This document shows positions 3,169-64,000 of a stretch of DNA of 64,000 nt, in pieces. This DNA is from Clostridia bacterium. GTDB lineage: Bacteria > Bacillota > Clostridia > Oscillospirales > RGIG577. The DNA is taken from contig JAFWDJ010000024.1 of assembly GCA_017513095.1 (NCBI GenBank), positions 6,073 through 70,072 of the forward strand. The letters are read 5' to 3'. The notes below the pieces were generated by a model that was not told where the DNA came from, searched no databases, and was given only the letters and a program-made list of their open reading frames with translations. A program made the position numbers and the translations under genes. Positions within the stretch are counted from its first letter, which is position 1. Each line of letters opens with the position of its first letter.

Positions 3169-3909
3169 TTACTCGGACAGTATTTCAGGAAGCCTTTCTT
3201 TGATAAAGGCGATCACTTCGCCTGCGATTTTTTTATGTCCCTCGGCGTTCGGATGTATGCCGTCGATGCAGATATAATCCCTGTAATGACGCTCCTTTAA
3301 AAACGACGTGCGGACGTCTATGACCTCGCAGCCGTGCCTGCGCGCGGTTTGCATAAGTATATTGTTGTAATGCTCGTGCGAGCGGTATATCTGATAAAGG
3401 TCGTATTCGAGCCATTTTAAAACGTTGTTTCGTCCCTCGTCCGAAAATTCGCGCGTGAACCAATTGAAATAACGCTCGGCGTCGATTATCGGAAGATTCA
3501 TAAATACGGCGGTCGAGCCCGCTTCCCTTATCATTTCAATCATTTCTGTAAGGTTGCGCGTGTAGTCCTCCACGGATACGTGGCTTACATGCTCCATATC
3601 GGGCACCTTCGCTATCTCCTCCCAGTAATGGTCGGTGTCGTTGCCGCCGAAGCAGATAAGATTAAGCGTGCGGGAAAGGTCGACGCCCGCCTTTTCGTCC
3701 AAAATGAGCCTGCGCCTTAAAAGGCGTCTGCCCTTTTCCGTAACGTATCCGAAATGCGCGAAGTTCTCCACGGGGAGATTAAGCTTTTCCGAAACGAGGC
3801 CGACGCAGCCGGCGGAGTCAAGTCTTATATAGCGCTTTGTATCCGCGTCGAGCGCAACGCCCTGAAGGAGCGAATCGCCCCAGACCATAATTCTGTCAAA
3901 TCTGCTCAT
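3169..3909 (-). CDS. SGNH/GDSL-family hydrolase
   Basis: 246 aa. Block I MVWGDSL (catalytic Ser), block III FGGNDTD, block V DGIHPNAEGH. Confidence 0.75.
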   Translation of the reverse strand: MSRFDRIMVWGDSLLQGVALDADTKRYIRLDSAGCVGLVSEKLNLPVENFAHFGYVTEKGRRLLRRRLILDEKAGVDLSRTLNLICFGGNDTDHYWEEIAKVPDMEHVSHVSVEDYTRNLTEMIEMIREAGSTAVFMNLPIIDAERYFNWFTREFSDEGRNNVLKWLEYDLYQIYRSHEHYNNILMQTARRHGCEVIDVRTSFLKERHYRDYICIDGIHPNAEGHKKIAGEVIAFIKERLPEILSE

Positions 3910-3996
3910 AAAGCAACCTCCGAAATTCTTTATATAATAAAACAGGAACAGGAACGGGCAAAAAAGCCCGTCCCTTTGATTTTTTTGTATCGGTGA

Positions 3997-4482
3997 TTAT
4001 GCGTTTTCGCCCTCGGCTGCGCCCTCTTCGGACTTTTCGGCTTCGTCCTTTGCCTCGGGTTCGATGTCCTCCGCCGCCTTTTTATCGGGAGCCGGATCGC
4101 CCGTTTCAAGCTTTACGCCCTGAACGTGGATGTTGATGCGCTCAACGGATATGCCGGTCATCGTCTCAACGTCGTCCTTTATCTTCGCCTGAAGCTTTTC
4201 GGAAACAACGGGGATAACGGCGCCGTACTGAACTATGATGTGCGCGTCGATAACGGCGGAGCCGTTGTTTATTTCGACCTTTATGCCTCTGGGCACGTTT
4301 CTTTTGCTCAGAAGCTCAGCAAGGCCGCCGGTGATGCTCTGTGCCACGCCTGCGATGCCGTCGGTTTCGGTAACGGCCACGGACGCGATGGCGGATATTA
4401 CGTCGGGCGATATTTTTACCGTGCCGATGTCTATTTCTTCTTCCGTGGGCTCATGGTTTAAGTTTATGTCCTTATCCTCCAT
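3997..4482 (-). CDS. Asp23/Gls24-family alkaline-shock-like protein
   Basis: 161 aa. Asp23-type core (ISPDVISAIASVAVTETDGIAG...INIHVQGV) with an acidic tail. Same position downstream of spoIIIA as B. subtilis yqhY. Confidence 0.8.
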   Translation of the reverse strand: MEDKDINLNHEPTEEEIDIGTVKISPDVISAIASVAVTETDGIAGVAQSITGGLAELLSKRNVPRGIKVEINNGSAVIDAHIIVQYGAVIPVVSEKLQAKIKDDVETMTGISVERINIHVQGVKLETGDPAPDKKAAEDIEPEAKDEAEKSEEGAAEGENA

Positions 4483-4567
4483 TATTTTGTACCTCCTGTT
4501 ATATTTACGGTGTTGTGTTTTTGTTTACGTATGTAATTCTATCATACAATAAATTTCGCTTGTATGT

Positions 4568-5122
4568 CTATTTTATTTCCAAAATCTTAATTTTATCCGC
4601 GGAAATGCCCGTTTGGGTTATAACGATATCCTTAAGCTGCGCGATCTGCGTCTTTTCAAGGCCGTCGGCCTTTACCGTAAGCGTTACGGAGCCGTCGGTA
4701 ATATACGCCGCGCAGTCCGCGAAGCCCTTTGCGCGGACGAGGTTTTCAACGGAGCTCTCCGCAAGTATCGCGTCGGCCATTGCATCCAGCTTTTCGGCGG
4801 CTTTGCTTTTGTCCTCTTCGGAAAGCGATTCGTTGTTTATTACTTCTTTTAAGAGAAAAGCGGCCTCGTCGCGGCTCTTCTGGCGCGTAAGCCGCGCCTG
4901 AGCTATCGCGGGATCTGTCTGCGCGCCCGCGCCTTCGGCGGAAAGGTTGGCGCCGGGCGCGGACACCTCTGCCGTCTCGCCCAGGTCGCTCGACGCGGGG
5001 CTTACGGTTTCGGTTATGTCAAACATGCCGTTTGAATCAGTATAAACGACATTTAGATAAACGGCAAGTGCGATAAGTCCCGCAAGTACAACTATAACAT
5101 ATTTTTTCTTTTTTAAATACAT
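4568..5122 (-). CDS. spoIIIAH: Stage III sporulation protein AH
   Basis: 184 aa with an N-terminal TM anchor. Last gene of an eight-gene spoIIIA-type operon; size and position match SpoIIIAH. Confidence 0.8.
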   Translation of the reverse strand: MYLKKKKYVIVVLAGLIALAVYLNVVYTDSNGMFDITETVSPASSDLGETAEVSAPGANLSAEGAGAQTDPAIAQARLTRQKSRDEAAFLLKEVINNESLSEEDKSKAAEKLDAMADAILAESSVENLVRAKGFADCAAYITDGSVTLTVKADGLEKTQIAQLKDIVITQTGISADKIKILEIK

Positions 5123-5143
5123 TTATTATTCCTCCTTTTGTTT

Positions 5144-5701
5144 TTATGATGAAAGCTTTATAACGCAGATGCTGCTTGAGGGTATTGAAAAAAGCGTTCT
5201 TACGGCTTCTGTTATTGTAAGTACGGTATTATTGTTGTCCGCGCCCTCGCACGCGATTACAACACCGCGCACACGGGGCTCGTTTTTTCTTACAACGATG
5301 GGCTCCTGATTTCCGCCGCTCGAAACGGTAAGAATGCTTTTCTGACTGTCGTACGCCGAGGATATGCGCTCTGAATCGGATGACTCTGTCTTGTTCTCGC
5401 GGCTTTCGACGGCATATACGCGTTCGGTGCCGTTTTCAAGCGTTATCATTACCTCGCATTCCCCCGCCCCGTCCAGCCTTTCAACTATCGCCTTCACCCG
5501 CTGCTCGAGCGTTTTGGCGTATTCTAAATTGTCGCCTTCGTTTGAAGCGCTAAAGTCGGTTTTGTCGCGCGTTTCGCCGACAAGGTCGGGCAGAAATATG
5601 ATAAAGAGGCCGATAATTATGAGTATGATAATAAATTTCGTGTTTTTGCCGCGGAAAACCTTTCTCAAGCTTTCGATATCCACCGATTCACCCGCTCTCA
5701 T
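5144..5701 (-). CDS. spoIIIAG: Stage III sporulation protein AG
   Basis: 185 aa with a single N-terminal TM. C-terminal block (RVRGVVIACEGADN) typical of SpoIIIAG. Operon position fits. Confidence 0.8.
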   Translation of the reverse strand: MRAGESVDIESLRKVFRGKNTKFIIILIIIGLFIIFLPDLVGETRDKTDFSASNEGDNLEYAKTLEQRVKAIVERLDGAGECEVMITLENGTERVYAVESRENKTESSDSERISSAYDSQKSILTVSSGGNQEPIVVRKNEPRVRGVVIACEGADNNNTVLTITEAVRTLFSIPSSSICVIKLSS

Positions 5702-6170
5702 TTGTTTTAATAATAAGCTCCTGTGCGCCGTATCGCACTTTAAGCGCCGCTTCGTCTATCGCGTTCCGGTCGTCCTCGCCGTAAAGTGTTATTTCAAGCG
5801 ACTTGACGCTTTGCTCGCCGTCAAGCCGCGCTTTTACGTTTCCCGGGCGCACGCCGTATTCTTCTAATAGATATGCTTTTACATCCTCGCATATTCCCTC
5901 TTCGGCAAATCTTATTACCTGCATTTTATACGTATCGTTAAAATCGCGGCCATCAGGACTTTCGGTAATAGTGCCGACGTCGGGCGTTATGTACCCCACC
6001 GCACCGTTTGCGAGGTCTTTAAGCGGAGATAAAAGCGCCGCAAGCGCGATAAGGCCGCAGATAAGCTTTAGCGGCGCGCCGAGCGCGCCTTTCGGAAAGA
6101 GAAATCTTATTATCCCCAAAAAAACGCTCAGCGCGATAAGCGTTACGATAAAGGATTTTATATAAGCCAT
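5688..6170 (-). CDS. spoIIIAF: Stage III sporulation protein AF
   Basis: 160 aa with two N-terminal TM helices. Operon position between AE and AG. Confidence 0.75.
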   Translation of the reverse strand: MAYIKSFIVTLIALSVFLGIIRFLFPKGALGAPLKLICGLIALAALLSPLKDLANGAVGYITPDVGTITESPDGRDFNDTYKMQVIRFAEEGICEDVKAYLLEEYGVRPGNVKARLDGEQSVKSLEITLYGEDDRNAIDEAALKVRYGAQELIIKTNESG

Positions 6171-7295
6171 TTATTTTGCCCCCACGGAGACCGTAAGACC
6201 GATCGAAATTACCATAAACACGCATACGCAGACGTTCAGTGAAAATATATACGAAATCGCCGCCGCAAATCCGTTTAAAAGCTTTGTAAGCCGTTCGTTT
6301 CCGAGCGTCTCCGAAAGCGCGGCGGTAATTTTGAAAACGACGAGCTGCGCACCTATCTTTATAAGCGGTATAAGGAAGATGAGCACGACGCCTATGATGC
6401 CGAATACCCCGAAGGCCGACTTTATGATGTGGGAATACGAAATTACAAGGTCGGCGGCGTCGGAGATTATTTTCCCCACGACGGGGACGGCATTCGATAC
6501 GGTGAACTTTACCGTTCTGCCGGCCGCCGCGTCTCCTATAGACGCGACGACTCTGTTTAACGTGATAAAGCCCGTAAAGACCGTGAGCATAAGCCCGAGC
6601 GAAAAGTTTAAAAAGCCGGATATAAGATTACAAAGTCCCGAAAGCTTTACCCCGTCGAATACGGCGTCGGCCGATGAGAGCGCAAGGCGGCAGCATATGA
6701 GCGGAATGAATACGTATTCGACGGCGTGCGACATGGCTTCGATGAGAAAGAAAAGCCAGAATTCAAGCGTGCCCGCGCTTGCGGCTTCGCCTCCCGTAAA
6801 AAGCAATATCACCATGGCGGGAGTGAGCGCCTTGACGAACGAAACGCCGCCCGAGACGGCCGACATTCCCGTCGCTATCACGTCCTTTAATACGGAGATC
6901 ATAACGAGCGAAGCGCTGAGGGCGCATACGGCGTCGGCCGTTTGCGACACCTCACCCGCCGCGAAGGAGCCGCCGAAAACGGTTATGACGGAGCAGAGTA
7001 TCATAACGCCGAGGATCAAAAGCGCGCCTTTTAATGCGCTTTTTAACTCCCCGAAAAATATGTCTGCAACTCTGTTCGGGATATTTCTTATCCCCTCTAA
7101 TCCGCTGCCGCCGACTATTGCGCCCGTGACGGCCTCGGCGCCGAATTCGGGGAAAAGCGCGGCTCTCACGCCGTAGAGCTCATTATCGGCGGCGCGTGCG
7201 TCTATGCCGAATCCGTCCAGGGCACCGATATCCGCAGCGCCGGCGGAAACGGCGGATAACGAAAGAAGGAGGATAAAGAATACAAGCTTTTTCAT
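6171..7295 (-). CDS. spoIIIAE: Stage III sporulation protein AE
   Basis: 374 aa with a signal peptide and a polytopic membrane profile. Size and order match SpoIIIAE. Confidence 0.85.
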   Translation of the reverse strand: MKKLVFFILLLSLSAVSAGAADIGALDGFGIDARAADNELYGVRAALFPEFGAEAVTGAIVGGSGLEGIRNIPNRVADIFFGELKSALKGALLILGVMILCSVITVFGGSFAAGEVSQTADAVCALSASLVMISVLKDVIATGMSAVSGGVSFVKALTPAMVILLFTGGEAASAGTLEFWLFFLIEAMSHAVEYVFIPLICCRLALSSADAVFDGVKLSGLCNLISGFLNFSLGLMLTVFTGFITLNRVVASIGDAAAGRTVKFTVSNAVPVVGKIISDAADLVISYSHIIKSAFGVFGIIGVVLIFLIPLIKIGAQLVVFKITAALSETLGNERLTKLLNGFAAAISYIFSLNVCVCVFMVISIGLTVSVGAK

Positions 7296-7299
7296 GGCT

Positions 7300-7686
7300 T
7301 TATCTCAATAGCGCCGTAAGCGCCGACAGGACCTCAAAAAACACGGGAAGAGAAAGCGCAAGCAGTATGAGCTTTCCGGCAAATTCAAGCTTGCTTCCGA
7401 TGGCGCTTTCGCCCGCGTCGCGGCAAAGATTTACGCCTATTTCGCACAGGCACGCGATGCCGACGGCTTTGAGCATAAGCGAAAAGAATCCGCCGTTTAT
7501 GCCGCCGAGCGCCGCTATGTCCGACAGCCCCGAGAAAATCTCTCCAATATAGCCGAGAGACAGAACGAACAGAAGTATCCCGCAGGCAAGCGAGATAAGT
7601 ACACGGTATTCGCTTTTGTACTGCTTTAAAACGACAGAGAGGACGACACCCGATAAGGCGATACCGATAAACTTTAATATCTCCAT
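7300..7686 (-). CDS. spoIIIAD: Stage III sporulation protein AD
   Basis: About 128 aa, four-TM protein. Start chosen at MEILKF (7686), after the G-rich RBS and the spoIIIAC stop. The ORF could extend to 7704. Confidence 0.75.
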   Translation of the reverse strand: MEILKFIGIALSGVVLSVVLKQYKSEYRVLISLACGILLFVLSLGYIGEIFSGLSDIAALGGINGGFFSLMLKAVGIACLCEIGVNLCRDAGESAIGSKLEFAGKLILLALSLPVFFEVLSALTALLR

Positions 7687-7705
7687 AAAGAATGCCCCCG
7701 TCACC

Positions 7706-7918
7706 CTAAAGCCCGAACACGCTTTTTATCGTGGAAAAAAGTGCACTTATCTCGCGTATCACCATAGTAAGCACTACGATAAGTCCGGCCAGCGTCGTAA
7801 GCATGGCCTGCTCCTCGCGCCCCGAACGTATCAGAAGCTGATTGAGCACCGCAACGAGTATCCCAATCGCCGCTATTTTGAATACAAGCTCAACGTCCAT
7901 CGTTTTTCCTCCCGTCAC
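7706..7918 (-). CDS. spoIIIAC: Stage III sporulation protein AC
   Basis: 70 aa, two-TM mini protein in the correct operon position. Confidence 0.75.
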   Translation of the reverse strand: MTGGKTMDVELVFKIAAIGILVAVLNQLLIRSGREEQAMLTTLAGLIVVLTMVIREISALFSTIKSVFGL

Positions 7919-8427
7919 AGTGCGGCTATCGCGATTATCGCCGCGGCGATTACCGAAAGCCCCATATACATGCGCGTTCTCTTTTTTTCCTCCTCGCGCG
8001 CCGAAATCATTATCTGCGAAAGCTCCTCTTTCGCATATGATATCGAGCGTATCTGAGCGACGGCGTCGCCCGCGCCGAGATCGCGCCCGAGTGAGAGCAT
8101 GGCATCATATTCGCGCGAAGCGAAAACAATAGGCGAAAAAAGCGCCTGAAGCGACGACTCCCATATCGTAAAGACGGGCGGCCTCGGTATGAGGATCATG
8201 CTTTCGCGGCATCGAAGATAAAACCGCCCCACGGGCCCGTCTATGCGCGACAGCTTATAAAACGCCTCCTCGAGCGGCGCGCGGGCGAACGTTATTTCGT
8301 TCTGAAGCGCCGTAAGACTCAATATAAGGTCGGCGATGATCTCCGTGCGCGCTTTAAGCTGGCGCTTTAAAAATACGCCTAAAGAAAGGCCGGAAAAAAG
8401 AATAAGCACACATCCTGCGATTTTCAT
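7915..8427 (-). CDS. spoIIIAB: Stage III sporulation protein AB
   Basis: 170 aa with N- and C-terminal TM helices. Overlaps the spoIIIAC start by 4 nt. Operon position fits. Confidence 0.75.
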   Translation of the reverse strand: MKIAGCVLILFSGLSLGVFLKRQLKARTEIIADLILSLTALQNEITFARAPLEEAFYKLSRIDGPVGRFYLRCRESMILIPRPPVFTIWESSLQALFSPIVFASREYDAMLSLGRDLGAGDAVAQIRSISYAKEELSQIMISAREEEKKRTRMYMGLSVIAAAIIAIAAL

Positions 8428-8444
8428 GACAAAGCTGCGCTCCT

Positions 8445-9386
8445 TTAAAGATAATGAACGCTCGGCGTTCCGAGCCTCGGCACGTTTGAAAGCGTGACGG
8501 CCAGCGAAAACACCTTCTCGTCAAAAAGCCGCGAAAAAGCGGGCTTTTTTCGTATCTCATCGACGCTTTCCCCGTGCGCGGAGGCAATTACGGCGACTCC
8601 CGTGTTGTGCGCCGTCATCACGGCGCGCGCGTCGGCTTCGTTTAAGAGCTCGTCTGTAATTATCACGTCGGGCGACATTGAGCGAAGCATAATGCTTACG
8701 CCTATGCTTTTGGGGCACATATCGAGCACGTCGGTGCGCACCCCTACATCGTTTTGCGGCTCGCCCTTATACATGGCGCAGATCTCGCTGCGCTCGTCGA
8801 TAACACCGACCTTTACACCCTTAAAGCCGAGCGTTTCGACGCCGTTTGAAAGCTGGCGCGCGATATCGCGAAGCAGCGTTGTCTTTCCGCACGACGGCGG
8901 TGAAATGACGATGACGCTTCTTACGCGGTTGTCCTTTATTATCTCGTCTATTACCGCGTCGGCGCAGCCTTTGATTTCGCGGGCTATCCTGAAATTGAGA
9001 GACGACACGTCGCGGATGCTTAAAACCCCGCCGCCGTCGGTTATCACCTTTCCGCAGACGCCGACGCGGTGACCGCCGCGAATCGTTATAAAGCCGCATC
9101 TTAGCTCCTCTAAAACGCTGTGCACGGAAGCGCCCGTTATAAATTCAAACGTCGCGGCCATGTCTTCCTTCGTGACCGTATACGGCGCGCTCGGCGGCAA
9201 ATACGCGCCGATCGGCATACAGCCCGAATCGAGCGAGATCATAACGGGCGCGCCCGTTTTAAGGCGTATTTCATACGCGCGCGCTTTTATATCGCCGGAA
9301 AGCCGCAAAAGCTGCGTTCGTATATTCGGTGCGGTGTAATCTGCCGCACGGTCGAATCTCTCGGCCTTTTCGTTTATCGCTTTCAT
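8445..9386 (-). CDS. spoIIIAA: Stage III sporulation protein AA (secretion-type ATPase)
   Basis: Walker A ISPPSCGKTTLLRDIA and Walker B-like VIITDEL. Start placed at MKAINEK (9386), preceded by AAAGGAG. The longer ORF (to 9425) would abut the ligA terminator. Confidence 0.85.
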   Translation of the reverse strand: MKAINEKAERFDRAADYTAPNIRTQLLRLSGDIKARAYEIRLKTGAPVMISLDSGCMPIGAYLPPSAPYTVTKEDMAATFEFITGASVHSVLEELRCGFITIRGGHRVGVCGKVITDGGGVLSIRDVSSLNFRIAREIKGCADAVIDEIIKDNRVRSVIVISPPSCGKTTLLRDIARQLSNGVETLGFKGVKVGVIDERSEICAMYKGEPQNDVGVRTDVLDMCPKSIGVSIMLRSMSPDVIITDELLNEADARAVMTAHNTGVAVIASAHGESVDEIRKKPAFSRLFDEKVFSLAVTLSNVPRLGTPSVHYL

Positions 9387-13804: not shown

Positions 13805-14872
13805 TTACTTATACGCCCTCACCGCCGATTCAAGCGCCGCTTTCACTTCGTCCCTTAACTCCGCGGGCTCCAGCACGACGACGTCCGGCGCGTAGCTTAT
13901 CGCGAACTGCTTCATCGCAAGCCTGTTTACGCGCGCGGAGACGTCCGCGTGCGTTTCGGTCTCGTTAAAAAAGCGCACGTCCATGCCGAACATATCAATG
14001 ACGTCGCTTATCATCGCCTTTACGATGCGAAACGTTACACGCGCGTTATCGCTCGAATACATATAGACGTGCTCCGCCATGTACTTTGCGAGGTCGAAAC
14101 GCCTGCCTTGTGCGCCTTCGAGCGTGTCAAACGGCTTTACGGGCGACTCCTCGAGAATTTTTACGTCCGCTATGCGGTCAATGCGGTAATTCGATATGTC
14201 GTTATATTTGTCGTAGTTGCATATAAGGTAATACTTGCCCTCTTTGGCTGCCATCTGATAGGGGCTTACGATATACTCGCGCACGGAGCCGTCCTCTCTT
14301 ATGCGCTTGTGACGCTTTTTGTCAGCGCCGTATTCAAGATACGAAAAAGAGACCTTCCGCCCCTTCGATATTGCCTCGTCGAGCGTTTGTATCGTAAAAA
14401 ACAGCTCGGGATTCTGCGGCAGCGTATCGGGCATGGTGTAGATGTGCTTTACGTGAGCGTGAAAATACTCGCTCGAAAGCCCCTCGAGCTTTTCAACGAG
14501 CTCCCTGCACTGGTTGTATGGGATGTGCTTCGAAAAGAGAAGGCTGTCGATAAGGAGACGAAGCTCCCCTTCGGTAAAATCGCGCAGAAGATAAAAGTCG
14601 TAGAGGATATTGGCCTCCTCGGGCTCCCCGGTCCTGGGGTTCGGGATCATGCGCTTTGTTTCCTTGTATTCGATACTGTATCCGAAGTCGATAAGGTCGA
14701 GGATGTTGCGGCGAACGGCCTTGCGGTCGGCCTTCATGCCATACTCCCTTAAGAGTATGTCCTGAATCTGTTTTTGGCTGAGACAATGATTCTCGTCCGT
14801 GTATTTTTTAAAGATGTCCAGAATATTTAATATTAGGAGCTTCTTTGGCTTTTCCGTATACATTTTCGTCAC
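13805..14872 (-). CDS. WYL-domain transcriptional regulator
   Basis: 355 aa. N-terminal winged HTH (LSQKQIQDILLREYGMKADRKAVRRNI), a central WYL-type block (YYLICNYDKYNDISNYRIDRI) and a C-terminal WCX-like region. Confidence 0.8.
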   Translation of the reverse strand: MTKMYTEKPKKLLILNILDIFKKYTDENHCLSQKQIQDILLREYGMKADRKAVRRNILDLIDFGYSIEYKETKRMIPNPRTGEPEEANILYDFYLLRDFTEGELRLLIDSLLFSKHIPYNQCRELVEKLEGLSSEYFHAHVKHIYTMPDTLPQNPELFFTIQTLDEAISKGRKVSFSYLEYGADKKRHKRIREDGSVREYIVSPYQMAAKEGKYYLICNYDKYNDISNYRIDRIADVKILEESPVKPFDTLEGAQGRRFDLAKYMAEHVYMYSSDNARVTFRIVKAMISDVIDMFGMDVRFFNETETHADVSARVNRLAMKQFAISYAPDVVVLEPAELRDEVKAALESAVRAYK

Positions 14873-14955: not shown

Positions 14956-16251
14956 TTATGCGACAGCGGTTTTGGAAACGGCGCAGCTTTCCCGGAGGCT
15001 TTTCATATCTTCGGAAACGAGGACGCCCTTCTTTGCGAGAGCGTGCGCCACGGCGTCCAAAAAGGCGCGGTTCTTTACGAGAAGCTCCTTGACCTTTTGA
15101 TAGTAACGCGCCATGTCCGCGGCCGCAACGGCCTCCTGCCTTGCCATAAGCTCGTTTGAGTCACGGTGAGTATCGCTGCGGTAGAGGTCAAAGCCGCTAA
15201 AGCAGAGATCGTTTTCCATGTAATCGATGAGTGAAAAAGCTTCATCAATATCCTGCGAGCTGCCCACGTCGAACGTGCCGAAGCGTATTTCCACTGCGGC
15301 GCGTCCCGCAAGAGATACGAGGATATTGTATTCCATGTCGGAAAGCCTGTGAATTGAGCCTTTGGCGCGCGACTGTGTAATGCCGGTCCCGTCGCCGTCC
15401 TCAAAATGTGCTATAACGAGCGAAACGCTGCCGGGAGAAAGGAGCTCGGACGCGGCTGCGTGTCCGCTCTCGTGGTATACGAGCAAGGAGTTGTTGCTTT
15501 CTGCGGAAAGATCGATGGGCACGTGTTCGCCGGGCGCAAGCTTGTATTCGATGAGAAGGCACGCCTGCGTGATATGCTCCATGGTGATGTGCTCCGCGCG
15601 GCTGTAGCCCGCCAGAAGGCCGGCCTCGTTTATCACCGTCTCCAAAACGGCACAGGAGCGGCCGCCGAGGATGCTCGCTACGGTTTTCGGGTCTATGTCT
15701 TCGCAGAGCTTCTTTTTGGAGAGGTAGTGGCTTATGATATCCTCCGCGTCTTTGCCGCGGGGAGCACGTACATTGATGCTTTGGTCGAAGCGCCCCGCGC
15801 GGGTCAGCGAACGGGGCAGCTTGCCTACGTCGTTGGCCGTTGCGAGAATGAATACGTCCTTTCCCTTCACCTCGTCGATGCAGGCCTGCACCGCTACGTA
15901 TTCCTCGGAGTCGCGGTGGCTCGAGTCGTCGTTTGCGAATTTGTCCATGTCGTCCATAAAGACTATCGACGGCGCGTTTTCGGCGGCCGCGTCGAACGTG
16001 TCCTTTATCGTCTTTACGAATTCGCCGTTCGGCTCCGTTTTGCGGCAGATAAAAGTCTTACGCCCCGAGGCTTCGATGAGACACTTCGCCATGAGCGACT
16101 TGCCTACGCCCGGTTCACCGTAAAGAAGCAGTCCGTTGGGAGCGTTCGCGCCGAGCGCGCGATAGACGTCCGTGTTCTTAAGCGTGTCCGCGATGCGGAT
16201 AAGATCGCGCTTTATCGATGCGTAGCCTATGACCTTGTCAAATGCGTTCAT
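14956..16251 (-). CDS. Soluble FtsH-like AAA+ ATPase / M41 metalloprotease paralog (no TM segment)
   Basis: 431 aa. Walker A GEPGVGKS, Walker B VFMDDMD, SRH with Arg finger (LTRAGRFDQ), HEXXH (YHESGHAAA), and a downstream GRAAVEIRFG...GSSQDIDEAF block as in FtsH. Lacks the N-terminal TM and periplasmic region of FtsH. Confidence 0.75.
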   Translation of the reverse strand: MNAFDKVIGYASIKRDLIRIADTLKNTDVYRALGANAPNGLLLYGEPGVGKSLMAKCLIEASGRKTFICRKTEPNGEFVKTIKDTFDAAAENAPSIVFMDDMDKFANDDSSHRDSEEYVAVQACIDEVKGKDVFILATANDVGKLPRSLTRAGRFDQSINVRAPRGKDAEDIISHYLSKKKLCEDIDPKTVASILGGRSCAVLETVINEAGLLAGYSRAEHITMEHITQACLLIEYKLAPGEHVPIDLSAESNNSLLVYHESGHAAASELLSPGSVSLVIAHFEDGDGTGITQSRAKGSIHRLSDMEYNILVSLAGRAAVEIRFGTFDVGSSQDIDEAFSLIDYMENDLCFSGFDLYRSDTHRDSNELMARQEAVAAADMARYYQKVKELLVKNRAFLDAVAHALAKKGVLVSEDMKSLRESCAVSKTAVA

Positions 16252-50557: not shown

Positions 50558-51328
50558 TTAGCGGCCGCCGTATTCGCTGCCATAATAGAGAACTTTTCTG
50601 TTCTCGATCTTACGATGATTAACGTCAATAATATATTCGTTTGAATATTGAGCCATCCAATATTCGCCAGACAACTTGCGATTAAGCAGTTTGTCCATCT
50701 CTTCTGATAGATATTCATAATTTGAGTTCCAAACACAAAGTTCTTCGCCGCTCAGTTCAGAATCGTTATCGTTGGCAGGCAGCACGGGATCGGATTTTAC
50801 GTATTCAATCAAGGCATGCAGCTTGTGTGATTCCCTACCTTCGCCCTGCTGTTTATAAAACTCTTCAAAAGAACTCAACAAATCATCGCATTCGATCCAC
50901 ATTGCAGAGTCGCCTGAACCGTACTTGGAATTCCGGATTACGATAGTTTCCAGATTATTCGCCGATATCCCTTGCTTTTTACAGTAATTGAGAAAACGGT
51001 TTATCTCTTTAGGAACCGCGTCTTGTAGCGGTATTTTTGGATATTCTCCATCTTCATCACATAATCCTTCAATGATTGCGGCGCTGAACAGCAGCTCGCA
51101 TAATTCTTCAAGGCTTTTTGCTGTGGATAATGATTTGCCGCCAAAACAGATCTCGCCGTTTTTAACTTCAGGAATAAGGTAAATGCTCTCCGCCGCTTCA
51201 TCTCCCCCATCTTCAGGGCTGACAGCATGCCAAAAATCCGCCATTTTCTTATTCTCGTCAATCAGATATATCTCCAGAATATAGCTTGCACTGCTCGAAT
51301 TGGTCACAAAATCCGTGCGTATTTTCAC
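50558..51328 (-). CDS. FVTNSSS-motif protein, paralog 3 (unknown function)
   Basis: 256 aa. GTG start after GAGGA. N-terminus MKIRTDFVTNSSSASYILEI is shared with the ORFs at 51988-52815 and 55027-55698. Confidence 0.75.
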   Translation of the reverse strand: MKIRTDFVTNSSSASYILEIYLIDENKKMADFWHAVSPEDGGDEAAESIYLIPEVKNGEICFGGKSLSTAKSLEELCELLFSAAIIEGLCDEDGEYPKIPLQDAVPKEINRFLNYCKKQGISANNLETIVIRNSKYGSGDSAMWIECDDLLSSFEEFYKQQGEGRESHKLHALIEYVKSDPVLPANDNDSELSGEELCVWNSNYEYLSEEMDKLLNRKLSGEYWMAQYSNEYIIDVNHRKIENRKVLYYGSEYGGR

Positions 51329-51465: not shown

Positions 51466-51618
51466 TCACCGTTTGTCTGCGGCGATATAAATATCGGGAG
51501 CTTTCGTATAATTTTTACGTGAGAGGTTTTGCAAAGCGCACCTTATGCAGTTCACCGGGAAACCGCAGCTCGGGCACACGCCGTCCTCCATAGGCGTACC
51601 GCAGCGCGGACAATCCAT
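51466..51618 (-). CDS. Mini zinc-ribbon protein, copy 1 (50 aa, absent from the ORF track)
   Basis: MDCPRCGTPMEDGVCPSCGFPVNCIRCALQNLSRKNYTKAPDIYIAADKR. GGAGGAG RBS 5 nt upstream. The first 24 codons are duplicated at 55749-55853, with mostly synonymous differences. Confidence 0.65.
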   Translation of the reverse strand: MDCPRCGTPMEDGVCPSCGFPVNCIRCALQNLSRKNYTKAPDIYIAADKR

Positions 51619-51635
51619 ATTTACTCCTCCTTTTC
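51547..51635 (-). repeat. About 89-nt repeat (RBS + zinc-ribbon coding start), copy 1
   Basis: About 90% identical (7 mismatches in the 72 coding nt by manual alignment) to 55782-55870. Confidence 0.8.
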
Positions 51636-55026: not shown

Positions 55027-55698
55027 TTAAACCAAATCAAAATCTGATGTATCAAAGTATTCGCCGGTTCTCAGGTTCAGTCGTTTTATCTCTACGCCGC
55101 TTACGCGTCCCGGACCATATGAGCTGCACAGACGTTTTGCGAGCGTTTCCAAAGACCGACCGCCCCAATTATAACGACATACAGCCGCATTTCCGAATGA
55201 TTCTCCAATTGCGTCCGAAACTGTATTGATGTATGTTACCATTTCTGCTTCGGCACGCATTTTTTCTATTCCGGTCTGGGCTTTAAGATACTTTTGGGCC
55301 AGTTCAATGAGTATTATGTCGTTGTCTGCAATAATATCCGCCATCTCTCCCCATGCGTCGTAGCGTCGCTTCACCGTTATTTCGACAATATCCCGAACGC
55401 TGTTGAACTTAGTGCATGCTTCTCTTATAAATCTTTCCTTTTTACGGCGCAGCGGGTATGAGTCCGTGCTTTCCCAGTAATCATGAATTGAGCCTGCAAG
55501 CCATGTCGCCAGCTCGTTCACGGAAGAAAGGTGAGAATTGATGTTTTTCAAATCTCCGTTAAAAACCATTGTGGAGCCTCCGTCTGAGGTCTGCCTGTTC
55601 TCCGAAATGCTGACATATCGATTTGGCGAGCTGATCATAACCTCCACTGTAAAATTGCTTGAACTGGAATTTGTCACAAAGTCTGTGCGTATTTTCAT
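55027..55698 (-). CDS. FVTNSSS-motif protein, paralog 1 (unknown function)
   Basis: 223 aa. ATG after GGAGG. N-terminus MKIRTDFVTNSSSSNFTVEVMI. Shares an I-x-I-x(n)-WGE block with paralog 2. Confidence 0.75.
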   Translation of the reverse strand: MKIRTDFVTNSSSSNFTVEVMISSPNRYVSISENRQTSDGGSTMVFNGDLKNINSHLSSVNELATWLAGSIHDYWESTDSYPLRRKKERFIREACTKFNSVRDIVEITVKRRYDAWGEMADIIADNDIILIELAQKYLKAQTGIEKMRAEAEMVTYINTVSDAIGESFGNAAVCRYNWGGRSLETLAKRLCSSYGPGRVSGVEIKRLNLRTGEYFDTSDFDLV

Positions 55699-55748: not shown

Positions 55749-55853
55749 TTACGCTTTGTCCTGAACTTTTAATTCTGCGTGACAATTCACCGGGAAACCG
55801 CAGTTAGGGCAAACGCCGTTCTCCATAGGCGTACCGCAGCGCGGGCAATCCAT
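55749..55853 (-). CDS. Mini zinc-ribbon protein, copy 2 (34 aa, absent from the ORF track)
   Basis: MDCPRCGTPMENGVCPNCGFPVNCHAELKVQDKA. GGAGGA RBS. Lies 50 nt upstream of paralog 1. Confidence 0.65.
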   Translation of the reverse strand: MDCPRCGTPMENGVCPNCGFPVNCHAELKVQDKA

Positions 55854-55870
55854 AAGTATTCCTCCTTTTT
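55782..55870 (-). repeat. About 89-nt repeat, copy 2
   Basis: See 51547-51635. Confidence 0.8.
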
Positions 55871-58496: not shown

Positions 58497-58536
58497 ACAA
58501 AAAAGAAGTGCGGCCGATTGGCCGCACCCTTTTTGA
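58497..58536. terminator. Bidirectional terminator between the PolC-like gene and the low-GC cluster
   Basis: Stem gtgcggcc(58508-58515)/ggccgcac(58520-58527), with an A-run upstream and a T-run downstream. Confidence 0.6.
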
Positions 58537-58578: not shown

Positions 58579-61151
58579 CTATCGATCCAAGCGTTTCGCC
58601 CTATACGGCACGCGGATGCTGCCGTTTTCGGGGACGAAACGCTCCGCGTGGGACGCGTTTTTGTCGGCAGGAAGGAATGAAATGCCAGAGTCGTAGCATT
58701 CCAGGGCAAGCTTCAGGATTTTTATACGTTCCGACTCAATACATCTTTCGCCCTGCTTTCCCACAATTCGATTATACTCCTCATAGGCGCGCGCGCGGCC
58801 TTCGGCGAGGACGCCGTAGAGGACGCCGTAATCGAATTTTGGCTCATCAAACTCATCAATGCACGAAAGAACGGCGGCAAAGAACGCGGCGGGGCGGTTT
58901 ATTCTGTACCATACCTTCCTGAGATCGTTTATCACGGATCCGATCGCGTGCGCCTTTGGAAAAAGATAATATATCTCCCTCATCGATGCGATTAACCGTT
59001 CGGGGACGCCGTGTTGCTTCATTATTTCAAGCTGACTTTCATCAAAGCCGTGACGCGCCCTGCCCATTCTCACGTATTGTGCTATGGAATACGCGTCTTT
59101 TCGTCCTACTCCGTATCTCATCAGAGAAAGCATGACGTCCTCGCGAAACGCGATAGGCCCGCCGCAGTCGGCGCACGCCCCGATAAGCTCTCCGGGATCG
59201 TCGGAGCGGTCGAAGACGCCGTGATCAAAGCCAAAGATATTTACAAGGTCGGAGAATTTTGTCGGCTTTACGGCGGAGATAAATCTTTTAAAACTCTCCG
59301 AGCCGAAAGAAATGCCCTCAAGACTTGCGGCGCCGAAATACGAGGCGAAATCTATATCGCCAATATCAATGCTTTCTGCCGGCACGCCCGAATACTCTTC
59401 CATAAGCTTAAGCTCCGAAAAAAGCGTAAAGTCGTACATACATATTCTTTCAAGTGGGAGATAACGACAATCAATAAGCGTTATAGGCTTGACTTTGCCG
59501 CAAGAGCGTGACAGATACGTGTACCGTGTCGGTGAAAAGTCGGATATATCATATCCCCGGGGAACGATGAGAAAGGCTCCGGGGTGTCGGCCGCCCGCTA
59601 CATGCACCGACGCCATTTTTTTGACAATGCGTTCTCTTTGTCCGAGGCCTATGGACGTATTCGTTTCTTCGCAGTATTTATCTACCAGATCCGAAATACA
59701 CCGCTCGCCCATCCGTCCGTAAATCGTAGACTCCGAACCGGCGAGAACCGTGTTGTTCCTGCCGAACACCTCTTCAAGGCAATCAAGAATTTCCGTTCGG
59801 ATATCTTCGGCAAAGTTAAAATAAAACTCAGGTGATATGTCCCCTTCGTACCCGGTGAAGAATTCGCACGGGAGATTATGCCCGTCGCCCGTGTAAGGTG
59901 TGCCGCAGTCGGGACAAAGGCGCCTTTCGACGCCGAAGGTGACAAGATCGTATCCCGAGGCGCACTCCGTCTCATCGACGAATTCTACCCTTTTGCAATT
60001 CGGGCAGAAATAATGCGGCGGCAGAGGATTTGTCTCCGTTATGCCCAAAAGATACGAAACGAACGAACTTCCGACGCATCCGCTAAGCTTGTGAATATAG
60101 CCTTTACCGCGGCTTTTGTCGGACATTTTCGCCGCAAGCAGATAGTGTGACCAGCCGTCCGAACTGTCAATCTTTTCGAACTCGTCCGCTATGCGCAGGC
60201 GTATGATATCCGGCGCCGCTTCGCCGTATTTTTCGGCGGAGGCACTCAGAGCGCGCGATATGACCTTGCTTCGCGCGTAAGGAAGACAGAGCGTCGGCTT
60301 TTCAAACGGGAGCGGGTCGAAGCTTTCGACCGCTTCCGCGATGAGGTTCGTGTTTTCTATGACCGCCGTTTCCGTCATATCCCCAAGGAACGCAAAATCG
60401 CGAAGCATCTCCTCGGTCGACTTCATAAAGGCGATATTTTCATCCTGCCCGTCCTTCTGATGGAGGATCTTAAAGCAGAGCTCGTCTTCCTTTGTTATGC
60501 AGTTCGCGCGGCTTACCGCGGCGGGATGTTTTCCGATGCTCTGAAGGACGCGGACTGCCGCGAGTGCCGCCTCTTTGAGCGCGGCCCCGTCCGCTTCCTC
60601 TGACGAAACCGCCGAAAGCGCGCTTTTTGGGGGCAAGGTGATCTCTGCGTAATCGACGCCGTCAAATAGGACGAAAGCTCGCGCCGGACGTCAGCTTCGC
60701 TTTTATTTACGAAGCTTTGTATATGATCCCACGTGCATTCCCTGCCGATGAGAACGTCCTCTTTGTATTTGAGCACCAAATCCCAATCGATGTACGGCCG
60801 TTGATCGTTTTTAAGGTCCGTCGCCGCTTTTCGGTAACCGGCCGAAATGATAAGGTACACGTTTCTTAATCCGTGCCTCGTTTTGGCAAGCAGTGTTATA
60901 AAGAATTCGCCGCCGTTTTTGTCATGGCATAAAAGCCGCACGCCGAAAATGGCCTTGATTCCCGCATTCGCGCTTTTAACGGCTTCTGAAAGCTTTAAAA
61001 CGGAATGCACGGAGTCGAAATCTGTTATCGCCACGGCGTTTGAGCCGTTTTTTACTGCGAAATCCACGACGTCATCGGGCGTTATCACCGTTTCCCGGTA
61101 TCCGAAGCAGGAGCTTACGCCAAGCTCGATATGTCTTTTTTCGTTTGCCAT
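58579..61151 (-). pseudogene. Truncated, frameshifted PolC-like (PHP + Pol III alpha) paralog
   Basis: Two overlapping ORFs (60513-61151 and 58579-60636). PolC-type zinc module PPHYFCPNCKRVEF...CPDCGTPYTGDGHNLPCEFF. Colinear with PolC to the C-terminus (YLFPKAHAIGSV...ISFLPAD). No exonuclease, OB or N-terminal domains. The reading frame changes near 60671-60690. Confidence 0.7.
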
Positions 61152-61169
61152 TTAGTATTCCTCCGTTCT

Positions 61170-62318
61170 TTATTCCGTCTTCCTCTTTCTTCTGCCGGCG
61201 TTCTCGCTTGCCTTGAAGTTGTAGATGGGCTTAATTATCTTCTCTATAACTACCGTGTCCCCAATATTTTTGATTATCTCTTCCATGGGCTTATATACCA
61301 TCGGGCATTCGTCTATCGTATCCCGTGTGACGGATGTCGTAAAAATGCCCTCCATAGATTCCTTATATGCTGTAAGCGTAAAAGAATCAAGGGCGTCCTT
61401 TCTGCTCATAAGCCTGCCCGCGCCGTGAGGCGCGCTGAAATTCCACTCCTCGTTTCCGAGACCCGTGCAGATAAGGCTGCCGTCGCGCATATTCATCGGA
61501 ATGAGAAGTCGCTCGCCCTTTTTGGCTGATACGGCTCCCTTTCGCAGAATCATTGCGCCGACGTCGACGTAGTTGTGGACCGTCGAAAAGCTTTTCTCCT
61601 CGGTAAGCTTCATACCGTCGAGGATGACTTCCTTTATGACCGTGCGGTTGAGATGCGCGAACGCCTGCATGAACTCCATATCGTGAAGGTAATCCCGCAT
61701 ATCGTCTCCGCTGAGGTATGAAAGCTCATACGGTATCTCATCCTGTCCGCGCCCGCCGCAGGCGCCGTACGCCTTTTTCTGATAATGCTCCGCCACGCGA
61801 AGACCGAGATTGCGGCTTCCCGTATGTATCACGAGATAAAGGTTATCCTCGTCGTCGCGGTCTATCTCGATAAAGTGATTGCCGCCGCCGAGCGTTCCAA
61901 TGCTCTCCTTTGCCCTGCGGATATCGATCTTTTTTACGCAACGAAGATCATAGATATCAAGACGGCCGTGGCTTCGGTGGCTCCTTTCGCGCACCTCGAA
62001 GCCGCAGGGGATATTTTGGCGTATAAAGCTGTCGAGCTTCGGCAGGTCGATGCGTTTTTCGGAAAGCTTCACCGTGAGCATACCGCAGCCTATATCCACG
62101 CCCACGACGTTGGGAACGATTTTATCATGTATCGTCATCGTTGTGCCTATGGTAGAGCCCTTGCCGGCGTGCACGTCGGGCATAATGCGTATCCTTGCGC
62201 CCTCTGACGCCGGCTGGTCGCAGAACGCCTTTATCATGCTCTCCGCAGAGGGCTCAAGGGTGTCCGTAAACACATTTGCCTCTGCGTATCTGCCTTTTAT
62301 CTCAATCATTCGTTTCAC
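61170..62318 (-). CDS. rtcB: RtcB-family RNA 3'-phosphate ligase
   Basis: 382 aa. Motifs MPDVHAGKGSTIGTT, GGGNHFIE and SAPHGAGR. Confidence 0.9.
   Translation of the reverse strand: MKRMIEIKGRYAEANVFTDTLEPSAESMIKAFCDQPASEGARIRIMPDVHAGKGSTIGTTMTIHDKIVPNVVGVDIGCGMLTVKLSEKRIDLPKLDSFIRQNIPCGFEVRERSHRSHGRLDIYDLRCVKKIDIRRAKESIGTLGGGNHFIEIDRDDEDNLYLVIHTGSRNLGLRVAEHYQKKAYGACGGRGQDEIPYELSYLSGDDMRDYLHDMEFMQAFAHLNRTVIKEVILDGMKLTEEKSFSTVHNYVDVGAMILRKGAVSAKKGERLLIPMNMRDGSLICTGLGNEEWNFSAPHGAGRLMSRKDALDSFTLTAYKESMEGIFTTSVTRDTIDECPMVYKPMEEIIKNIGDTVVIEKIIKPIYNFKASENAGRRKRKTE

Positions 62319-62535: not shown

Positions 62536-64000
<1,465 letters not shown>

Follow-up and report, generated by a model that had tools for sequence, protein, structure and literature searches.

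A split and catalytically degenerate mini-PolC gene in a Clostridia bacterium, and its relatives in putative integrative elements

The locus and its PolC-type product

The gene considered here lies in a stretch of 64,000 nucleotides (the window) from a Clostridia bacterium of the Oscillospirales lineage RGIG577 (GenBank assembly GCA_017513095.1, contig JAFWDJ010000024.1, positions 6,073 to 70,072). It is related to the DNA polymerase PolC and is carried by two open reading frames (ORFs) on the minus strand, 61151-60513 (212 aa) and 60636-58579 (685 aa), whose reading frames differ by one base. Joined, the two ORFs give a product of about 857 aa that is colinear with the PolC core. An earlier note, made from the letters of the window alone, had described the pair as colinear with PolC from the PHP domain to the C-terminus; the colinearity holds, but the match does not reach the end of PolC (see below). 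The upstream reading frame (60673..61151, minus strand) encodes the N-terminal half of a degenerate PHP domain (Pfam PHP, 7.7e-16) and is colinear with its homologs up to ..RRELS, and the 212-aa ORF as listed continues out of frame to 60513. The downstream reading frame (58579..60672, minus strand) encodes the remainder of the PHP domain and the palm, thumb and fingers of a PolC-type core, as judged from NCBIfam, solved PolC structures and an AlphaFold (AF2) model; the 685-aa ORF as listed starts at a TTG codon at 60636 and stops short of the HhH and clamp tail.

The best NCBIfam model for both ORFs is PolC (PRK00448), with an E value of 1.1e-109 for the long ORF, and Pfam finds DNA_pol3_alpha in the latter at 7.4e-15. 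The scores stay well below the whole-protein cutoffs, at 368 plus 50 bits for the two ORFs against 873 for PRK00448 and at 356 bits against 1043 for TIGR01405. The joined protein aligns with the solved PolC structures 9qpc and 3f2b at E values of about 1e-81 and about 28% identity, residues 6-73 pairing with PolC 361-426 and residues 79-851 with PolC 636-1412. PolC residues 1-360 (the N-terminal domain and OB domain) and 427-635 (the DnaQ-type Exo insertion) have no counterpart; the protein starts at the PHP domain, and PF00929 is absent, which upholds the claim that the N-terminal, OB and exonuclease domains are missing. At the other end the protein terminates in ..IRVPYRAKRLDR, aligned to PolC residue 1412 of 1474. 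In PolC, a terminal HhH and the clamp-binding motif lie within the last 60 or so residues. The alignment ends 62 residues short of the PolC terminus, and the window protein therefore lacks this HhH and clamp-binding tail; it also has no match to PF14579, a model that does match relatives of 900-1200 aa.

The AF2 model of the frame-corrected 857-aa protein has a pLDDT of 87.4 and a pTM of 0.86, and its best structural matches in a Foldseek search are PolC 3f2b and 9qrl (TMq 0.80-0.85; for 3f2b, E 3.5e-56 and TMq 0.80), with DnaE structures at TMq 0.62-0.67. By this model, the frame-corrected protein is predicted to have the PHP-palm-thumb-fingers core fold of C-family polymerases. The PolC landmarks PPHYFCPNCKRVEF, CPDCG..GDGHNLP, YLFPKAHA and FLPAD are present, and the family alignment supports their earlier identification as such; SGCVGSSF and the HPG of the HPGG motif are kept as well. 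The zinc module (PPHYFCPNCKRVEF ... CPDCGTPYTGDGHNLP; 59869..60021, minus strand), at the junction of thumb and palm, reads PPHYFCPNCK...CPDCG...GDGHNLP and has the form of the PolC module, with Cys and His positions that are invariant in all 44 aligned sequences, catalytically dead members included. The protein therefore shares with PolC of known structure (G. kaustophilus 3F2B; 9QPC/9QRL) the core fold, the order of domains and these landmarks, and differs from it in its missing terminal, OB and Exo regions, its broken frame and its replaced active-site residues.

The gene directly adjoins an intact rtcB (61170..62318, minus strand), and the order in the window is lysS, rtcB, mini-PolC gene. 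The RtcB protein is 85% identical to that encoded upstream of a fused polymerase-helicase (PolC::DnaB) gene in the element L003/L004 described below. The rtcB stop codon (61172-61170) is followed 5 nt later by a Shine-Dalgarno sequence, GGAGG (61160..61164, minus strand), which precedes the ATG at 61151 by 8 nt, and an intrinsic terminator-like hairpin of 10 pairs (7 GC) with a T run is found at 58506..58529 (minus strand), 50 nt past the stop codon of the mini-PolC gene. Because the ribosome-binding sequence follows so closely on rtcB and the hairpin and T run come after the mini-PolC gene, the two genes apparently form one operon and would be co-transcribed.

G+C content at 50-60 kb is 44-48%, below that of the remainder of the window, which is ordinary chromosome (ligA, relA, recJ, glnA); no genuine polC lies within the 64 kb. 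The low-GC island holds an 87-nt direct repeat (51548-51634 and 55783-55869, 90% identical), the two copies lying just upstream, on the minus strand, of the genes 50558-51328 (256 aa) and 55027-55698 (223 aa); a 39-nt repeat (85% identity) is also shared by the 5' ends of these two genes. Small ORFs of 34 and 50 aa were called in the intergenic regions that contain the 87-nt repeats. The island also encodes two BRCT proteins, one SPASM protein and one Sel1 protein, and a sequence search of the PDB with the BRCT protein gave nothing useful. The defence models of PADLOC-DB gave no match for the 685-aa ORF, for RtcB or for a 284-aa neighbour protein, and on that ground an assignment to an anti-phage defence system was rejected.

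Active-site residues and the frame change

The palm motif SPEFYFNF (59812..59835, minus strand) replaces PDIDLNF or PDFDFNF. In the alignment to solved PolC, GDISPEFYFNF falls under GDKVPDIDLNF, and the first two catalytic Asp residues are a Glu and a Tyr, just as the earlier note had read them. A further loss, which it did not mention, is that of the third Asp: LERICMYDF (59428..59454, minus strand) replaces the LEKIDILGH of the family, and in the family alignment (LPLEKIDILGH over LPLERICMYDF) the third catalytic Asp becomes Cys. The pairwise alignment to 9qpc is shifted by two residues and places a Glu at this third position, but the Asp is lost in either alignment.

The PHP domain is likewise altered. 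Its H-x-H, already reported as replaced, reads G-V-S (61110-61124), and TDH reads TDF (61011-61028; both on the minus strand and located in the family alignment). According to a 2026 survey of bacterial polymerases, an active PHP exonuclease has the nine-ligand motif HHDHEH[C/H]DH (PMC12926913). The window protein keeps two of these nine metal ligands, the Asp of TDF and the Cys of GREC, and seven are replaced. The mini-PolC family as a whole keeps about three of nine, and loss of PHP ligands appears to be largely a family trait, not peculiar to the window copy.

The change of frame is best explained as a deletion of one nucleotide inside the PHP barrel, at 60669..60675 (minus strand). When the proteins of L005 and L003 are used as tblastn queries, the matching segments end at 60672 and resume at 60669 in the -1 frame, and the junction ..EADVRRELS / LFDGVDYAEI, set against ..AVDLEKEISFVFDGVDYVEV of the relative P0002, fits the loss of one base. 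The frame change had been placed at 60671-60690; a single base is indeed missing, but the interval is narrower and shifted. The sequence at the site, GCTTTCGTCC, contains no homopolymer, and there is no slippery heptamer of the form X_XXY_YYZ at the site or in the zone where the ORFs overlap.

The split is found in an ENA MEGAHIT contig, in a Logan contig and in the NCBI metagenome-assembled genome (MAG) 'Clostridia bacterium', where MBR2743360.1 is the 685-aa ORF. The contigs carrying the split locus measure 115,268, 115,413, 115,704 and 20,982 nt and come from three pipelines; the 212-aa fragment is present on all four, and the two contigs that were compared are 100% identical to the window. 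This recurrence argues against an assembler artefact, and the frameshift is probably real, since it occurs in every assembly found, at a site that is neither a homopolymer nor slippery. Apart from this one lesion, both halves are free of stop codons and of second indels over 2.57 kb. Neither the 5.8 billion clusters searched nor the 1.84 billion representatives contained an intact ortholog of the window copy; the sequence standing for its 50% cluster is the broken product itself, at 615 aa, and the closest relative after it shares 48% identity. The search for intact short forms proposed in the earlier note thus yielded none of the window copy itself, but it did uncover a family of related short forms with the neighbourhoods of mobile elements.

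The mini-PolC family and the repeated loss of the catalytic triad

The mini-PolC family is defined here by alignment A2 and a profile score above about 727 bits, and comprises about 14 clusters at 50% identity above the PolC background among the 1.84 billion representatives. The window protein (P0001) scores 807 bits against the family profile. It is 35-48% identical to the other members and 28% identical to PolC. Members start at the PHP domain, have N-x-H and TD[LF] instead of H-x-H and TDH, and contain the zinc module, a set of traits distinct from those of PolC. They are monophyletic in a neighbour-joining tree built on corrected identities and rooted with true PolC. Among GTDB representative genomes only two family-level loci were found (39-40% identity), one in a Lachnospiraceae MAG and one in a Clostridia MAG. 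IMG/VR contains no close relative, only partial matches at 21-34%, and a phage origin was rejected on this basis.

The earlier reading missed both this family and the probable origin of the gene in a mobile element. The missing exonuclease that it pointed out is not unusual in PolC of Clostridia: Exo-less variants make up 6% of PolC and occur only in the Clostridia and the Negativicutes (Timinskas et al. 2013, PMC3919608). Such variants recovered here (P0049, P0050 and P0075, and the Acidaminococcus/Phascolarctobacterium loci L016-L048) resemble the window protein in lacking the DnaQ-type insertion and in the bacterial classes where they occur. Unlike it, they are 1140-1250 aa long with N-terminal regions, keep H-x-H, TDH, PDIDLNF and KLDILGH, and are only 28-30% identical to it. 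From their sequences they look like housekeeping PolC.

At about 1200 aa, the longest family members extend further at the C-terminus, with an HhH region and a helicase ATPase of the DnaB type. P0002, P0009 and P0014 are PolC::DnaB fusions of this kind, with a helicase part that matches phrog_19 at 1e-48 to 1e-58 and keeps the Walker A sequence GRPGMGKT. The fusions lie in a conserved module whose gene order is metallophosphatases, a cREC_REC protein, two small genes, PolC::DnaB, an S24 LexA/CI-like repressor, and a serine or tyrosine recombinase; PemK, Xis, an FtsH-like gene, NinI-like phosphatases and a recombinase or integrase are found nearby. Judged by domain content and position, these loci would be phage-like integrative elements in which the fusion acts as replicase, and it is the PolC-core::DnaB-helicase fusions of such elements that are the least degraded members of the family. 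The fusions (P0002, P0009, P0013-15, P0019) are also the nearest relatives of the window protein, at 40-48% identity. They share with it the truncated N-terminus, the degenerate PHP domain (N-x-H, TDL) and the zinc module, and P0002 shares the rtcB neighbour as well. They differ in having the C-terminal HhH and ATPase, an intact Asp triad, a conserved 135-aa gene upstream, and the S24 repressor and recombinase downstream.

Other genes of the elements and islands that carry mini-PolC include ADP-ribosylglycohydrolase, PAD_porph, NADAR, GmrSD_N, WYL and DUF2779 (L191 1060-1861 and 4421-5215; L193 3246-6858), a content with the flavour of conflict systems that may bear on element function. A 431-aa FtsH-like AAA+ protein is encoded in the window itself at 14956-16251 (minus strand) and is 45% identical to the FtsH-like proteins (AAA + Peptidase_M41) of L003, L006 and L171. 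Its neighbour at 13805-14872 (minus strand) matches L171 1937-2977 at 32%, and the pair lies 45 kb from the mini-PolC gene.

The family is apparently small, derived from integrative elements of gut Clostridia, and undescribed. A full-text literature search found no description of the family or of PolC::DnaB fusions, its coverage being incomplete and the result an absence of evidence only. Nor was a description of mini-PolC proteins found in two surveys of bacterial polymerases, PMC3919608 and PMC12926913; the latter contains no mention of DnaB fusions, and term searches of its text gave no homolog from the C family whose polymerase site is dead.

The neighbour-joining tree shows at least 12 independent losses of the catalytic Asp triad within the family. 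The clearest pair is P0002, with an intact triad, and P0003, in which all three Asp residues and HPGG are changed; the two are 86% identical, and P0003 retains the helicase Walker A sequence. In this pair (L003/L189) the changes at the active site are far more concentrated than the overall divergence of 14% predicts. Cases of outright decay also occur: a nonsense codon and a deletion in L116, internal palm deletions in L168 and L171, a frameshift in P0036, and fragments reduced to the zinc module in L176-L178.

Loss of the triad has not been accompanied by neutral drift. Pairwise Nei-Gojobori estimates of the ratio of nonsynonymous to synonymous divergence (dN/dS) within a dead clade are 0.28 for L111 against L115 (dS 0.21), 0.27 for L010 against L115 (dS 0.26) and 0.17 for L005 against L111 (dS 1.6). 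The comparison of intact P0002 with dead P0003 gives 0.27 (dS 0.27), and two active-looking members, P0009 and P0016, give 0.24 (dS 0.24). The value is 0.53 for L118 against L119, of a clade marked by the motif PEFQM, at a dS of 0.08. Dead members thus have values (0.17-0.28) like those of active-looking ones and are under purifying selection. Because members without the triad keep such ratios, polymerase chemistry seems to be dispensable for whatever maintains these ORFs.

The long-lived dead clade (P0005/6/7/11) has a neighbourhood of its own. Upstream lie a divergent 291-aa protein consisting only of IMS_C, the Y-family little finger, and a 170-aa gene; downstream are one to three tandem paralogs of about 280 aa without Pfam domains, then an alpha/beta hydrolase and an AddB/AddA-like pair (L010 684-1559 and L111 8172-9172, both on the minus strand, and the genes downstream). 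A dead C-family polymerase beside a truncated Y-family-like protein resembles the mutasome cassettes, an arrangement seen in this other clade only and not in the window. A sequence search of the PDB with the IMS_C protein gave nothing useful. A partner common to the window and the dead clade was considered and rejected, because the 284-aa protein downstream of the window gene is not homologous to the paralogs of about 280 aa in L005, L010 and L111; there was no match by hmmsearch with all filters off, nor by BLAST. One metagenome contig, L118, carries two PolC-like genes head to head (3615-5975, minus strand, and 6651-9242, plus strand), an 863-aa family member with the PEFQM motif and a 786-aa protein that is only 27-30% identical to it.

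History of the window copy and what it means

In the tree the window copy is sister to P0002/P0003. The window and the P0002 locus have rtcB in common, at 85% protein and 73% nucleotide identity, and their polymerase genes show no detectable nucleotide similarity. In tblastn searches with the element proteins, only rtcB was found to be shared: the helicase domain, the 135-aa partner gene, the S24 repressor and the recombinase were not found in the window. One further trace of such an element involves lysS. A 169-aa ORF of L003 (18730-19239), placed right after the tyrosine integrase, matches window positions 62539-63060 end to end at 70%, and this segment of the window is the C-terminal linker and tRNA_bind part of LysRS. 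Because the ORF behind the integrase matches the C-terminus of LysRS, and because the window lysS adjoins rtcB and the mini-PolC gene, the 3' end of lysS may be the attachment site of L003-type elements, which suggests that the window holds a stripped remnant of one.

The window lineage has accumulated 1.1-1.7 times the unique substitutions of P0002 (about 1.5-fold), a difference that is significant with five of six outgroups. Its protein violates 14 of 122 family-conserved positions (11.5%, against a family median near 3%) and is among the most degenerate members of the family. As a rough estimate, neutral drift that replaced most of the dozen or so critical ligands would also have produced tens of stop codons. 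From the absence of any further lesion across 2.57 kb, the slight acceleration and the low dN/dS values of dead relatives, we infer that catalytic death preceded the frameshift and took place under selection that preserved the ORF. The frameshift would then be recent.

The following history would accommodate these data. The ancestral gene would have been a short PolC-type core, made up of an Exo-less PHP, palm, thumb, fingers and zinc module, fused to a DnaB-type helicase ATPase, a form that persists in related elements beside the LexA/CI-like S24 repressor and a recombinase. The window lineage would then have lost both the helicase domain and the small partner gene upstream, and all three catalytic Asp residues and seven of nine PHP ligands would have been replaced. 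The protein would have been maintained for a long time as an intact, foldable, non-catalytic ORF, until a single-base deletion at about 60670 split the PHP barrel. What remains, directly after the chromosomal lysS, would be left over from the replication module of a phage-like integrative element. Read in this way, the locus is a recently formed pseudogene, still transcribed with rtcB, of an element-derived mini-PolC that had been catalytically dead for a long time; we regard this as the likely account, though not a secure one. The earlier note had offered a choice between a decaying pseudogene and a repurposed, dead scaffold with a sequencing or assembly indel. Each would hold part of the truth, the one following the other in time, but an artefact is unlikely with four contigs in agreement.

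Several observations pull the other way. The Shine-Dalgarno sequence, the terminator and two intact long ORFs are what a live gene presents. Purifying selection on the dead relatives means that a non-catalytic role exists in the family, and it could persist in the window copy. All of the assemblies may derive from one sample or read set, in which case their agreement is no proof of a fixed mutation. With respect to the element, no flanking direct repeats of the att type were found around 46-64 kb and no tRNA gene lies nearby, and in the window there is no integrase or other element gene near the locus, the only other match to an element being the distant FtsH-like gene.

A rival account takes the gene to be live: it would encode a non-catalytic pseudo-polymerase as one 857-aa PolC-shaped scaffold or DNA- or replisome-binding protein, presumably the role of its dead relatives too, and the gap would reflect a minority variant or a mistake in sequencing or assembly. 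The otherwise undamaged 2.57 kb, the strength of the ribosome-binding site and terminator, the confident merged model, the dead relatives' dN/dS of 0.17-0.28 at dS values of up to 1.6, and the conserved zinc module and YLFPKAHA fingers motif would all be expected. The same gap is nevertheless present in all four contigs and three pipelines, including the NCBI MAG annotation, the site is not an error-prone homopolymer, and the share of violated conserved positions is well above the family median; this explanation is unlikely, if still to be taken seriously. A related proposal extends it to the family, in which mini-PolC, with its invariant zinc module, would be a pseudo-polymerase that, for example, recruits or blocks the host replisome or partners a helicase, and the window copy would still function with rtcB and the BRCT/Sel1/SPASM island, its frameshift being an artefact or tolerated. 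If true, dispensable chemistry would explain at least 12 losses of the triad with dN/dS near 0.25; taken as a whole, we consider the proposal doubtful.

It is improbable that the split is tolerated or put to use, with the two parts made separately or joined by ribosomal -1 frameshifting. The frames do overlap, both open, for about 180 nt, and the upstream ORF has a good Shine-Dalgarno sequence. Yet the only two slippery heptamers, at 61053 and 60999, lie outside the overlap where the -1 frame is closed; homology fixes the switch to about 6 nt of non-slippery sequence; and the break falls midway through the PHP domain, inside its barrel. Translation of the downstream frame could first start at the TTG at 60636 or at an ATG at codon 71, with no strong Shine-Dalgarno sequence seen before either, and none of the other family members has a split here. 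Programmed -1 frameshifting was rejected for want of a slippery heptamer in the overlap and of any relative split at the site. That the gene encodes a working DNA polymerase, possibly the PolC of the cell, using alternative carboxylates is close to refuted, for although Glu keeps the first catalytic position acidic and HPG is retained, Tyr and Cys stand in place of the second and third Asp, the OB, Exo and clamp-binding regions are gone, the reading frame is interrupted, the PolC score reaches only 368 bits against a cutoff of 873, and the gene, which lies in a low-GC island, comes from a family associated with mobile elements.

A polymerase fold kept under selection after loss of its catalytic carboxylates has parallels in other polymerase families. 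In the ImuA-ImuB-DnaE2 mutasome the Y-family subunit, ImuB, is dead. Some PolX proteins also have an inactive polymerase site, according to the 2026 survey (PMC12926913). Both offer an analogy for how dead mini-PolC may work; unlike them it is of the C family, and no partner polymerase or RecA-like subunit was identified at the window locus.

The C-family polymerases are seen as enzymes of essential replication or of the SOS response. The window locus is not the replicase of its cell, and it fits annotation as a disrupted PolC-like gene better than as a hypothetical protein and a PHP protein. The locus itself is of modest interest, and the pattern in the family is the more informative: compact PolC::DnaB proteins appear in mobile elements, and their catalytic triad has been discarded repeatedly under purifying selection. 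Such a pattern suggests that the PolC scaffold serves a purpose other than catalysis, perhaps one that involves the zinc module.

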